Both the position numbers and the translations under genes were made by a program. Of a stretch of DNA of 38,301 bases, positions 3,762 to 6,129 are shown piece after piece. Numbering within the stretch: position 1 is the stretch's first letter; each line of letters begins with the position of its first letter. The stretch spans positions 1 through 38,301 of the forward strand of contig CAXGBD010000003.1 of assembly GCA_964008355.1 (NCBI GenBank), written 5' to 3'. The stretch comes from an uncultured Gammaproteobacteria bacterium. Lineage in GTDB: Bacteria > Pseudomonadota > Gammaproteobacteria > Steroidobacterales > UBA11654. The notes under the pieces are model-generated. The model was not told where the DNA came from and ran no database searches. It saw nothing but the letters and a program-made list of their open reading frames with translations.

Positions 3762-4763
3762 TTATTTATCCTTAAGTAATTTAGTTAGTAATGATTTTTG
3801 TACATGTTTTCTATTGCTAGCTTCCTGAATTGCTACACAATAATCGGCATCCATCACACCATCAGTAGCTTTAACATTTCTTCTTAATGGCAAACAGTGG
3901 CTAAAAATCGCATTATTTGTTTTTGCCATTTTTTCTTCGTCAACAATAAAATGTTTATTTTTATGCCTTTGTATCAATTCTTTCTCTACGTCACCATAGT
4001 GCAATAAGGATCCCCAACTTTTTGCATAAACTATGTCTGAATCTGAATAGGCCTGATCAATATCATGAGTGATAGAGAACTTGGTCTCATTTTCTTCACA
4101 ATTTTTTTTGGCTTGCTCAAGATATTTCTCATGCAAGTTATAGTTTGGCGATGGACATAGAAGTTTTACATTCATTCCAAACTTACTCGCAATTAGTATG
4201 CTTGAATTCGCAACGGCGGTATTAAGCGGTTTTGGATGATAAGTCCATGTAAGGAGGTAGTTTTTACCTCTTAAGTTGCCCAAGTTCTCTTGGAGAGTGA
4301 GTATATGTGCCAATTCTTGACATGGGTGTGTGATGGTCTCCATATTAACAATAGGGACAGTTGCATACTGAGCAAAACTATTGATCACTCTGTCTTCAAA
4401 ATCCTCCTCTAGATTTATAAATTTCGGGAAGGCTCTTACCGCTATAAGGTCACAATAGTTGGATAACACTCTTGCGACTTCTTTGATATGCTCTTCAGGG
4501 TTTTCATTCATAATGACTGCAGGCTCAAATTCTATGGGCCATGCATCACTACCTGGATGCAAAACAACTGCGTAGCCCCCAAGCTCCTGAATACCTAATT
4601 CAAAACTAACCTTAGTTCTCATGGAGGGATTAAAGAACAATAAGGCCACAGATTTATTCTTTAATAGATCTTGAAACTTATTTTCCTTTAAGTTTTTTGC
4701 ATAGTCTAAAATTTCTTGAAGATCCTGCTTGGACCAATCTTGAGTTGTAATAAAGTTTTTCAT
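3762..4763 (-). CDS. argF: N-acetylornithine carbamoyltransferase (AOTCase, ArgF')
   Basis: FFNPSMRT carbamoyl-phosphate motif, WPIEF, EEHIKEVARV, HPCQEL, LTWTYHPKPLNTAV and HCLPLRRNVK are signatures of Xanthomonas-type AOTCase rather than canonical OTCase. Confidence 0.92.
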   Translation of the reverse strand: MKNFITTQDWSKQDLQEILDYAKNLKENKFQDLLKNKSVALLFFNPSMRTKVSFELGIQELGGYAVVLHPGSDAWPIEFEPAVIMNENPEEHIKEVARVLSNYCDLIAVRAFPKFINLEEDFEDRVINSFAQYATVPIVNMETITHPCQELAHILTLQENLGNLRGKNYLLTWTYHPKPLNTAVANSSILIASKFGMNVKLLCPSPNYNLHEKYLEQAKKNCEENETKFSITHDIDQAYSDSDIVYAKSWGSLLHYGDVEKELIQRHKNKHFIVDEEKMAKTNNAIFSHCLPLRRNVKATDGVMDADYCVAIQEASNRKHVQKSLLTKLLKDK

Positions 4764-4777
4764 ATTTTCATTCAGAT

Positions 4778-4806
4778 AAAAAAAAACCCAGCTATTATGC
4801 TGGGTC
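4778..4806 (-). terminator. Intrinsic terminator (candidate attenuator 3:4 hairpin) just upstream of argF
   Basis: Minus strand reads G-ACCCAGC-ATAATA-GCTGGGT-TTTTTTTT: a perfect 7-bp stem, 6-nt loop and U tract ending 14 nt before the argF ATG. Confidence 0.88.
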
Positions 4807-4838
4807 TATTAATTATTTTAGAAAAAAGCAGACGCCAG

Positions 4839-4886
4839 CTAGAATGCCGGTCTCCTGTTACCTTCTTCTCTAATTAAATTAAACAT
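4839..4886 (-). CDS. Putative arg-operon leader peptide MFNLIREEGNRRPAF (or 20 aa from the in-frame ATG at 4901)
   Basis: Short ORF ATG TTT AAT TTA ATT AGA GAA GAA GGT AAC AGG AGA CCG GCA TTC TAG with three Arg codons, two in tandem. It overlaps the 1:2 hairpin and ends about 30 nt before the terminator. Confidence 0.65.
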   Translation of the reverse strand: MFNLIREEGNRRPAF

Positions 4887-4892
4887 AGTGTC

Positions 4893-4920
4893 ATTATTCA
4901 TATCGCTATCAGTTTGTAAA
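4893..4920 (-). promoter_or_regulatory. Candidate sigma70 promoter for the arg leader
   Basis: TTTACA(4920-4915)-N16-AATAAT(4898-4893), then 6 nt to ATG 4886. This would make the leader peptide leaderless, consistent with the lack of an SD sequence. Spacing and -10 are imperfect. Confidence 0.35.
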
Positions 4921-4989
4921 GGTTTTATCTTATTTTGATGAATATATATTTCTTATTGATTCGTCTGGTAGTATTTTTTAATATCTTTC

Positions 4990-6129
4990 TTACTTCCACC
5001 GCGATTTTTTTAAAAAGTATTCGCCTGCTTCTTTGAGTCCTTCAGGGAGATATTTCAAAAATCCATTAGGTCCGTATCTAGAAACGTACTGATCTGTTAA
5101 ATGGGTAATTAACTCATAATGGATATCAGGTGTTTTGTGTCCATCTCTAAAGCTTTGCATTGGTATTGTATGAGTTACAATTTCTTCGTGATGAGTTTCT
5201 GCTTCAGCTACACATTTGCCCCAAGGCTCATAGATTGAGGTTCCACCTCCTCCTGCATCTTCTATGAAGCTTCTGTTGTTAGGAGACACGGAATTATTCA
5301 CTAGGCCTGTGTAGACTTTGTTTGCTTGGGCCACTGCTGCAGCATCAATTCTATTGGAGCCACCCGACGCTGTTTTAATGATAAGTTCTGCTCCTTTCAT
5401 GGCCATGCCTCTGAAGATTTCGGGTTCCATGACACAGGGCGTGATGGTGATATTGCCAATATCAGTTTTGGCAACTGGCAACACTGCATCCCAGCCGTAC
5501 ATTTCAACATAGCGATCTAGGACGTCATACACTGTTGTTGTGAACAGCTCGAATCCCACAAAGACCCCATGAATATTTCTAGCTTTCCATTGTTCAGATA
5601 TGATTTCACCCTTAGGGTTGATGATCACAGATACACTCATGATATGACGTGGCCAGTCTTTGTATTGTGCATAGGTGCCGAAACTAATATAGCAATTATG
5701 CTCTATGGCTTTTTTGCCAATGGCTTCAGTCTCAGGTCCAGGAAGCCTCAGAGCAAATCCCAGTATCTCTTCCCTACTCCATTGGTCCCAACCTGTAATT
5801 GGAAATTCATGAAAGGCTAAGTAATCTTTATGGCCGCCGTAGCCTTGGGCAGCATCAATAAGAAATAACATGTGATCCAGGTTTGATTTAATTCCAGGTT
5901 TTGGGTTCTTCCCATCCACAGGGGTTACCTCACTTTGCACGAGACACAGGTTGACTGCTTCTTGTTTTAGGGCAACGGTATCGTAGGTGCCTGAGTTTCC
6001 GACAAGTTTTGGAATATCTTTCTTTATTGTCTTTGATGGGTCTGCATTTGCTAGTATGGGGAAACCGGCTAATAAGGATGCCCCATAACTGAGAAATTCT
6101 CTTCGGCTTTCTTTGGTTTTCTTGCTCAT
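4990..6129 (-). CDS. Nitrilase-superfamily carbon-nitrogen hydrolase with Tat signal peptide
   Basis: Glu-Lys-Cys triad candidates FHEFP / EQWKAR / GNITITPC, followed by PEIFRGMAMKGAELI. N-terminus SRREFL + hydrophobic stretch + ANA cleavage site. Confidence 0.8.
   Translation of the reverse strand: MSKKTKESRREFLSYGASLLAGFPILANADPSKTIKKDIPKLVGNSGTYDTVALKQEAVNLCLVQSEVTPVDGKNPKPGIKSNLDHMLFLIDAAQGYGGHKDYLAFHEFPITGWDQWSREEILGFALRLPGPETEAIGKKAIEHNCYISFGTYAQYKDWPRHIMSVSVIINPKGEIISEQWKARNIHGVFVGFELFTTTVYDVLDRYVEMYGWDAVLPVAKTDIGNITITPCVMEPEIFRGMAMKGAELIIKTASGGSNRIDAAAVAQANKVYTGLVNNSVSPNNRSFIEDAGGGGTSIYEPWGKCVAEAETHHEEIVTHTIPMQSFRDGHKTPDIHYELITHLTDQYVSRYGPNGFLKYLPEGLKEAGEYFLKKSRWK

Follow-up and report, generated by a model that had tools for sequence, protein, structure and literature searches.

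A candidate arginine-codon leader-peptide attenuator upstream of argF' operons in SAR86 and other Gammaproteobacteria

The minus strand of a 38,301-nucleotide (nt) stretch of DNA from an uncultured gammaproteobacterium (contig CAXGBD010000003.1 of assembly GCA_964008355.1; hereafter the window) carries an arginine biosynthesis operon, in front of which lies a short leader containing a small open reading frame (ORF) with arginine codons, an intrinsic terminator and a set of mutually exclusive pairing segments. We consider it quite likely that this leader is a ribosome-mediated leader-peptide transcription attenuator which senses charged tRNA-Arg and controls argF'-argG-argB-argC-argH. The parts of the element, their conservation and co-variation, their folding behaviour and the lack of a detectable ArgR domain in the genome are all observed. 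An earlier reading of the same DNA, made from the letters alone (the sequence-only reading), had proposed such an attenuator, and its individual claims are taken up below together with the results that bear on them.

Anatomy and folding of the leader

The leader and its terminator are composed of the following elements, all on the minus strand:

4886 to 4839, minus strand: leader ORF of 15 codons plus TAG (MFNLIREEGNRRPAF), as read from the sequence; ATG at 4886-4884, TAG at 4841-4839
4871-4869, minus strand: AGA, the earlier, isolated Arg codon of the leader
4856-4851, minus strand: Arg codons 11 and 12, AGG (4856-4854) and AGA (4853-4851), 3 codons ahead of the stop; putative regulatory pair
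Within 4855-4846, minus strand: segment 1 (GGA..CCGGC), GC-rich, inside the ORF and overlapping the Arg codons; partner of segment 2 in minimum free energy (MFE) structures
4840-4829, minus strand: segment 2 (AGCUGGCGUCUG), overlapping the stop codon; alternative partners are segment 1 and segment 3
4820 to 4869, minus strand: whole 1:2 hairpin, including the outer stem 4869-4860/4829-4820; candidate anti-antiterminator and possible pause hairpin
4807-4799, minus strand: segment 3 (AGACCCAGC), which pairs with segment 2 or serves as the 5' arm of the terminator
4798-4793, minus strand: terminator loop, between segments 3 and 4
4792-4784, minus strand: segment 4 (GCUGGGUUU), 3' arm of the terminator
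4786-4778, minus strand: U9 tract, the terminator tail, followed by 14 nt to the ATG of argF'

The sequence-only reading had described a 15-residue leader peptide with the codons AGA...AGG AGA at 4886-4839, three pairing segments and a terminator whose U tract ends 14 nt before argF', and every one of these parts is present as it had been described. The terminator is a 9-bp stem followed by U9 (4807-4778) and was recovered independently by a terminator scan. The two alternative helices required small corrections. Pairing of segments 1 and 2 does form in the predicted fold, in a register slightly different from the one first proposed and extended by an outer stem (4869-4860/4829-4820); the antiterminator formed by segments 2 and 3, originally given as 9 bp, comprises 10 bp in the window, with the single bulge (a C) that had been foreseen, and it occupies the entire 5' arm of the terminator, so that the two structures exclude one another. 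When the 132 nt from 4901 to 4770 are folded, the resulting structure (-35.8 kcal/mol, z = -4.15) contains both the 1:2 hairpin and the terminator, and none of 200 shuffled sequences folds as well.

How often such an arrangement might occur by chance was gauged in G000, the assembly that carries the window (1.40 Mb, 39% GC, 140 contigs, 82.7% complete). On both strands of its 1.4 Mb there are only 29 strict intrinsic terminators (perfectly paired stem of 6 bp or more, G-C pairs in 4 or more positions, then 5 or more T), and the motif CCCAGC..GCTGGG+T of the arg leader occurs a single time. Two Arg codons in a row fall within the last six codons in 115 of the 7785 ATG-initiated ORFs of 12-18 codons (1.5%). 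A crude genome-wide scan for a strict terminator with a short ORF upstream and a long ORF downstream returned 14 candidates, among which only the arg leader has a convincing amino-acid run; no further leader-peptide attenuator (his, trp, leu, thr) emerged from it. Nothing in the window attains the gathering score of any Rfam family, and the weak matches between 4600 and 5100 (34 at E-values up to 10) are driven by the terminator and all lie far under the gathering scores.

Conservation, co-variation and alternative pairings

The product of argF', N-acetylornithine carbamoyltransferase, was used to locate comparable operons in 41 genomes, 20 from the family of G000 and 21 from the same order (representing 21 different families). 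Four of the 20 family genomes carry it, namely G000, G011 (95% identity to the protein of the window), G008 (69%) and G014 (68%), as do seven same-order genomes at 56-62% identity. In all 10 of these relatives (56-95% identical), argF' is preceded by a short ORF in which Arg codons form runs, by a GGCUGGG-like segment close to the stop codon of that ORF and by the same terminator. The runs are frequently longer than the pair of the window (RRRR, RRRRR, RRRRRRR, RRRLRRRR), with ORF tails such as ..VVRRRRIG.., ..IRRRRRD.., ..CRRRRRRRV.. and ..TRRRLRRRRSR... Searching a single genome per species added 80 loci to these 11, giving 91 in total; the added loci (numbered with the prefix L) come from SAR86, Kangiella/Kangiellaceae, Elongatibacter, many Xanthomonadales/Lysobacterales and a few metagenome-assembled genomes (MAGs) labelled otherwise. 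The sequence-only reading had tied the device to a streamlined genome, a view at odds with its presence in Xanthomonadales of 3-6 Mb and in other gammaproteobacteria.

A perfect-stem terminator with the core CCC[AG]GC / GC[CT]GGG is found no more than 150 nt upstream of argF' in 74 of the 91 loci. Among these 74, the ORFs ending next to segment 2 have 67 distinct tails, of which 61 contain Arg-Arg. Of the six without it, three come from Kangiella (L044, L047, L048), where the wrong frame was picked automatically and the true frames read RRRSR and RRRRR, and L077 is probably a similar case. The enrichment is specific to the reading frame: the last 16 codons of the leader frame contain 3.5 Arg on average and the two remaining frames of that stretch 2.0, and the figures are 3.2 and 1.0 when only the 25 loci below 50% GC are considered. 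Several argF' loci with 61-65% identical proteins (L045 and L046 from Porticoccaceae / SAR92 MAGs, L052, L054, L057, L071, L074 and others) show neither a terminator nor an Arg-run ORF within 350 nt upstream.

The closest counterparts of the window form what we call the SAR86 short type (the window, G011, G008/G014, L031-L035 and L043). ORFs of 14-15 codons are kept in its 10 relatives, which otherwise share little of their peptide sequences. Arg-Arg stands 3-4 codons before TAG in 10 of the 11 loci, the TAG overlaps AGCUGG or GGUUGG, and the distance from the last Arg codon to segment 2 is 10-13 nt, with the stop overlapping segment 2. The Arg pair is spelled AGG AGA in some loci and AGA CGG in others, and CGC/CGT runs are used in other lineages. 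Because the Arg codons vary synonymously while other leader residues change, selection appears to act on the Arg codons and on the geometry of the element, and not on the peptide or on one particular RNA sequence. Retention of the leader ORF and its Arg codons amid an otherwise variable peptide was among the checks named in the sequence-only reading, and relatives bear it out.

Other arrangements were encountered along the way. In a second SAR86 architecture (L038, L040, L042), an ORF of about 40 codons ends, directly before its stop codon, in ..RRRRSI, ..RRRRSV or ..KRRLRSI, and an imperfect hairpin with a U run follows right after the stop, at a distance of some 35 nt from argF'. The long upstream ORFs of L037 and L041 end in a comparable C-terminal motif (..QR[LI]RSL before the stop), as if the leader had been fused to that gene. 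Xanthomonadales loci (L056-L110) differ from those of SAR86 in that a leader peptide located about 100-250 nt before argF' is conserved residue by residue across many genera (..[IL]TSARMAAGMTSRARRP, five residues, then AG and the stop).

Co-variation was assessed in a sequence-based alignment (A2) of 61 distinct leaders, in which a few rows are off by one column, an imperfection that counts against structure. The 2:3 helix is paired in 86.9% of the cells of this alignment vs 19-56% after displacement of the partner strand by 1-3 columns, and the terminator stem 3:4 is paired in 96.9% of cells. Segment 2 tracks segment 3: terminators of the CCCGGC/GCCGGG kind are accompanied by a GCCGGG segment 2 or by the wobble-compatible GCUGGG, and an A-C clash (segment 2 GCCGGG opposite CCCAGC) is seen in only one or two loci. 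In L050 all three segments are altered together (GCCAGG / CCTGGT / GCCAGG). The column pair 15-80 is occupied by UA in 26, CG in 16, UG in 11 and other combinations in 8 leaders, and the observed score is reached by 1 of 500 shuffles. Segments 2, 3 and 4 thus co-vary, as the sequence-only reading had anticipated for stems of this function.

The effect of a ribosome on the choice between helices was examined in nascent-transcript folds, a format adopted because full-length folds under the ribosome mask did not flip. For these, the RNA was cut before segment 4, and a mask of 28 unpairable nt (an assumed footprint) was placed over the first base of the A site together with the 15 nt before it and the 12 nt after it. 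When the A site was occupied by the last Arg codon, the 2:3 helix was the MFE structure of all nine distinct SAR86-type leaders (-13.2 kcal/mol in the window); when the stop codon took its place, the mask lay over segment 2 and segment 3 remained unpaired, again in nine out of nine. Without a ribosome, six of the nine leaders, including the window (-23.1 kcal/mol), formed the 1:2 hairpin and left segment 3 unpaired. Masked and unmasked folding, suggested earlier as a check, therefore comes out as predicted in nascent folds: a stall at the Arg codons releases 2:3, and segment 2 is hidden once the ribosome has reached the stop codon (9/9).

These data also bear on the idea that the choice between terminator and antiterminator is made by a protein or small-molecule sensor, be it an RNA-binding protein, a riboswitch-like fold or a nascent peptide whose arrest reports free arginine. 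The residue-level conservation of the Xanthomonadales leader peptide (..SARMAAGMTSRARRP..AG and stop) could point to a peptide-specific role, and full-length equilibrium folds favour the terminator. Yet that same peptide conservation overlaps helices of an Rfam model and may reflect constraint at the RNA level, and the SAR86 group conserves only the Arg-Arg pair, the stop position and the pairing segments. The window, moreover, lacks an Rfam family at gathering score, and an arrest peptide that stalled at high arginine would presumably antiterminate precisely then, which is the wrong sign for a biosynthetic operon. We accordingly regard a sensor of this kind as very unlikely, and attenuation by a translating ribosome as the better account of the leader.

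Predicted transcription start and proposed mechanism

A promoter scan placed two further elements immediately upstream of the leader ORF:

4915 to 4920, minus strand: -35 hexamer TTTACA, with 10 of 12 matches in the promoter scan; invariant in 10 of 10 aligned SAR86-type loci
4893 to 4898, minus strand: -10 hexamer AATAAT, separated from the -35 hexamer by a 16-nt spacer; the leader ATG begins 6 nt later

All 10 aligned SAR86-type loci possess a TAnAnT-like -10 box 16 nt after the -35 hexamer, and an ATG 6-8 nt further on. No Shine-Dalgarno sequence precedes the leader ATG, nor is there space for one, in the window or in the aligned SAR86-type loci, and an upstream in-frame ATG at 4901 falls inside the -10 box. 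Since the ATG sits only 6-8 nt past the -10 box, transcription of the leader is expected to start at, or within a few bases of, the AUG; in the window the start probably lies at or within 1-3 nt of A4886, and the leader is probably translated from a leaderless mRNA.

Public RNA data touch upon this region. Parts of the stretch occur in 16 runs, all in the form of contigs, and four RNA-library runs from three studies were compared with it; such contigs give no transcript ends, strand or level, and gaps in their coverage are not informative. One of them, X1 (4646-4931), spans the leader, the terminator and the 5' end of argF', the others being short pieces. X1 differs from the window at 4815 and 4844, and one of the changes turns the last leader codon from Phe to Ile, as in G011, from which it follows that the final codons are free to vary between strains.

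The position of the promoter is relevant to a second alternative, according to which the hairpin merely terminates the upstream CN-hydrolase (nitrilase-like) gene and the short ORF arose by chance. The terminator indeed lies about 200 nt past the stop of that gene on the same strand with no other terminator between them, and contig X1 reaches upstream of the predicted promoter. Nevertheless, a conserved -35/-10 pair intervenes between the CN-hydrolase gene and the leader, and terminal Arg-Arg is a feature of only 1.5% of comparable short ORFs. In addition, the upstream neighbour varies, being a CN-hydrolase gene in the window, another ORF in G011 and a tRNA-Leu gene in L032, L033 and L043, yet promoter, ORF, segment 2 and terminator remain with argF'. 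The sequence-only reading had itself raised the possibility that the hairpin ends the nitrilase operon, and the conserved promoter and changing neighbours contradict it; we consider it extremely improbable.

Attenuation in response to tRNA-Arg would proceed as follows. Transcription would begin downstream of TTTACA-16-AATAAT, at or next to the leader AUG, and the 15-codon leader would be read from a leaderless mRNA. When Arg-tRNA is plentiful, the ribosome would reach the UAG (4841-4839) and cover segment 2, allowing 3:4 to form and RNA polymerase to terminate at U9, 14 nt before argF'. When Arg-tRNA is scarce, the ribosome would stall with AGG or AGA (4856-4851) in its A site and its front edge just short of segment 2; 2:3 could then form once segment 3 has been made, the terminator would be blocked and the operon transcribed. 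If no ribosome were to load, segment 2 would be held in the 1:2 hairpin and termination would ensue. The start site, leaderless translation, stalling and arginine-dependent read-through are the steps of this scheme that we infer.

Several considerations weigh against the scheme. The organism is an uncultured SAR86 bacterium known as a MAG, so that attenuator function is deduced from its DNA, and the same holds for leaderless translation of a leader without a Shine-Dalgarno sequence in SAR86. At equilibrium, the full-length leader keeps its terminator despite the mask of a stalled ribosome in 10 of 11 cases (L034 being the exception); the switch would consequently have to be kinetic, with 2:3 forming ahead of the synthesis of segment 4. 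Kinetic switching of this sort is accepted for classical attenuators. One column pair and a small number of independent lineages provide most of the co-variation, the sequences being related. The sensitivity of the window leader to starvation is not obvious, since it has just two adjacent Arg codons and one earlier one, and AGA is the commonest Arg codon of G000 (46% of Arg codons, compared with 14% for AGG); in L043 a single Arg codon (CGG) is retained. By the strict rule, 17 of the 91 loci lack a terminator within 150 nt (it is farther away in 3 and absent in 14), and these include Porticoccaceae, Planctomycetota MAGs and the second SAR86 leader type with its imperfect hairpin. Contig X1 extends 45 nt upstream of the predicted start, perhaps because transcription continued out of the upstream gene or because DNA was carried over into the library. 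Finally, failure to find ArgR in G000 alone is weak evidence because the assembly is 82.7% complete, the family-wide result given below being stronger.

Xoo5, ArgR and the arginine operon in context

A transcript corresponding to this leader seems to have been seen before. The Rfam family RF02242 (Xoo5; gathering score 50) matches upstream of argF' in L106 (115 bits), L110 (75), L060 (54) and L078 (53), loci that belong to Stenotrophomonas, Thermomonas, Luteimonas and Lysobacter. The Xoo5 consensus begins 2 nt before the leader AUG, contains an ORF reading ..MTSRARRP..AG before its stop, holds a GCUGGGUA segment and stops just short of the terminator hairpin. The accessible text of its description reports sRNA-Xoo5 as a 124-nt RNA of Xanthomonas oryzae, with a 5' end determined by rapid amplification of cDNA ends, a 3' end taken from a clone and Northern bands of about 130 and 100 nt (Liang et al. 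2011, PMC3039613). Potential start sites of the homologue were also observed in X. campestris pv. vesicatoria, according to the part available to us of PMC3300014. Since the Xoo5 5' end has been mapped and the model begins 2 nt before the AUG, a short leader transcript starting at the leader ORF exists in a relative. Judging from the four related genera, Xoo5 may be the terminated arg leader transcript.

Like the element of the window, Xoo5 lies directly upstream of argF', includes an ORF with Arg codons and carries a GCUGGGU segment complementary to the downstream terminator arm; unlike it, Xoo5 is filed as a small RNA (sRNA) gene, its model lacks the terminator, and its leader has about 32-33 codons and a conserved peptide. 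This conserved Xanthomonadales peptide overlaps the helices of the Rfam model, and the constraint may act on the RNA, on the peptide or on both. The window has no Xoo5 match at the gathering score, nor at E-values up to 10 between 4600 and 5100; as the model does not match, the element of the window is best described as a functional and positional counterpart of Xoo5 and not as a sequence member.

The classification of RF02242 as 'Gene; sRNA' raises the question of whether the element is mainly the gene of a trans-acting sRNA, its short ORF and Arg codons being incidental. A discrete RNA of about 100-130 nt was detected in X. oryzae, according to the text available for PMC3039613, and terminated attenuator RNAs can act in trans, as described for rnTrpL of Sinorhizobium in the accessible part of PMC7968998. 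The element, however, always lies directly upstream of argF' and in the same orientation, and its ORF frame and Arg codons are preserved through synonymous changes. Segment 2, moreover, shares bases with the stop codon and changes in concert with the arm of the terminator, features of which an independent sRNA would have no need. A principal role as an sRNA therefore strikes us as very improbable, although the terminated leader RNA of an attenuator could have an additional role in trans beside its role in cis.

Compared with the classical attenuators of Proteobacteria (trp, his, leu, thr, ilv, pheA), the leader of the window has the same ingredients: a short ORF with cognate codons, the 1:2 / 2:3 / 3:4 set of helices, an intrinsic terminator before the first biosynthetic gene, regulatory codons near the stop and a stop beside segment 2. 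Its 15 residues with two adjacent Arg are comparable to the 14 residues with two Trp of the Escherichia coli trp leader, as given in the accessible text of PMC4007540. It departs from these systems in sensing arginine, in having no Shine-Dalgarno sequence and in the position of its ATG 6-8 nt past the -10 box; the scores of the Rfam Leu_leader (20.3; gathering score 50) and Trp_leader (18.8; gathering score 41) models on the window are far below threshold.

Ribosome progress through Arg codons is known to be informative elsewhere. In Salmonella orf34, the speF leader, two consecutive Arg codons suffice for arginine-dependent ribosome pausing, according to the available text of PMC6386406. From the same source, orf34 resembles the window in that Arg-Arg stands in an upstream ORF and the progress of the ribosome reports on arginine and selects between alternative mRNA structures; it differs in serving polyamine synthesis and in relying on Rho-dependent termination, ribosome-binding-site occlusion and RNase G sensitivity, and not on an intrinsic terminator. 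Leaderless sensory small ORFs have likewise been reported, as polycysteine ORFs in mycobacteria (10.1101/834739) and as 14 predicted leaderless leader peptides in Deinococcus deserti (PMC4007540). As far as the accessible texts describe them, these ORFs share with the window their location at the 5' end of the transcript and the control of downstream biosynthetic genes by stalling at the codons of one amino acid, but they belong to other phyla, concern other amino acids and, in the mycobacterial case, act on translation through sequestration of a ribosome-binding site and not through an intrinsic terminator.

The sequence-only reading had known of no well-characterised Arg-codon attenuator. 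A literature search that included full texts returned no described Arg-codon attenuator of arginine biosynthesis, with the proviso that subscription journals lay largely outside it and that an earlier mention is possible. None appears in the accessible text of PMC8632094, PMC3039613, PMC3300014, PMC4997734, PMC2965389, PMC5343134 or PMC4007540; the available main text of the Xoo5 paper (PMC3039613) contains 0 occurrences of 'arginine' or 'leader', and that of the D. deserti paper (PMC4007540) 0 occurrences of 'arginine'. The account of the sequence-only reading needs amending in that a transcript of the Xanthomonas counterpart had already been seen and filed as the sRNA Xoo5.

Control of arginine biosynthesis is classically attributed to ArgR. 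ArgR and its ARG boxes would govern the same pathway and shut it off when arginine is abundant, as proposed here for the leader, but ArgR is a protein-DNA repressor and not an RNA leader. Its distribution was followed through the N-terminal domain PF01316, with genomes grouped by the type of their carbamoyltransferase and ArgR counted afterwards. As a control, the domain was found in 9 of 14 well-known genomes. It was detected in none of the 20 family genomes (G000 included, several of them >90% complete), which agrees with what the sequence-only reading had expected of an argR search in G000 and extends it to 19 other genomes. Nor was it found in the seven same-order genomes with a window-type ArgF' and leader, which makes 11 of 11 genomes (4 family + 7 same-order) with a window-type operon and no match. 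Kin among the genomes are not independent, although the 21 same-order genomes represent 21 different families. All nine same-order genomes with a classical ornithine carbamoyltransferase (33-36% identical to ArgF') do contain it, argR lying about 5 kb from argF in each. The remaining 5 of the 21 same-order genomes have neither gene. G035, an unpublished genome in the set of 41, counts only among the genomes with neither, and nothing claimed here depends on it.

The genes surrounding the leader are arranged as follows:

ends at 4990, minus strand: CN-hydrolase gene, nitrilase-like, upstream neighbour of the leader
3762 to 4763, minus strand: argF' (N-acetylornithine carbamoyltransferase; NF003384, E-value 1e-155), first structural gene, with its ATG at 4763
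3760 to 2570, minus strand: argG, following argF'
2539 to 1229, minus strand: long argB, following argG
1272 to 289, minus strand: argC, following argB
296 to 3, minus strand: 5' part of argH (first ~98 codons), cut by the contig end

A spacer of 226 nt separates the end of the CN-hydrolase gene from the arginine operon. No clear Shine-Dalgarno sequence is present between the U tract and the ATG of argF' (4764-4777, minus strand). As the U run stops just 14 nt before the start codon, the terminator hairpin could also influence initiation of argF' translation.

G000 was assigned to the SAR86 cluster from its nearest named relatives. The operon is distributed patchily within the family: ArgF' is encoded by 4 of the 20 genomes, and it is missing from both of the other genomes placed in the same genus as the window, which are 88-90% complete. 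G011, although it belongs to another genus, encodes an ArgF' 95% identical to that of the window and has a different upstream neighbour. This pattern suggests that the operon was lost in most lineages or was transferred together with its leader. Five SAR86 loci have a tRNA-Leu gene (anticodon TAG) upstream of the arg operon (L031:1520-1604, L032:2252-2336, L033:2252-2336, L034:1029-1113 and L043:2222-2306), and in L032, L033 and L043 it stands directly before the leader promoter; tRNA genes are common sites of island insertion.

Taken at its widest, we lean slightly towards the view that a previously unrecognised class of Arg-tRNA-sensing attenuators, and not ArgR, controls argF' operons across scattered Gammaproteobacteria (SAR86, Kangiellaceae, Xanthomonadales and others), that its members are leaderless or nearly so, and that Xoo5 is the terminated leader of one of them. 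Most likely, the kind of mechanism is a known one, leader-peptide attenuation, and what is new is its Arg-codon specificity for arginine biosynthesis, apparently in place of ArgR and probably on a leaderless mRNA. Arginine is the textbook case of control by a repressor, ArgR, and is absent from the usual list of amino acids whose synthesis is controlled by attenuation. If the proposal is correct, arginine would be added to the amino acids (Trp, His, Leu, Thr, Ile/Val, Phe and Cys) that are sensed through ribosome stalling in the control of their own synthesis. A mechanism that is among the best understood in gene regulation would thereby gain a new specificity, and an orphan Rfam sRNA family would be re-annotated as a cis-regulatory leader. 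At about 110 nt, the element would also be a small, naturally occurring sensor of arginine, and its sensory ORF a likely leaderless one from Proteobacteria. The occurrence of the leader and that of argR are perfectly complementary in the searched genomes, which would make the element a clean example of an RNA device taking the place of a regulator by non-orthologous replacement. The proposal would also account for arginine regulation in lineages without ArgR, including the Xanthomonadales and the SAR86 bacteria abundant in the ocean.

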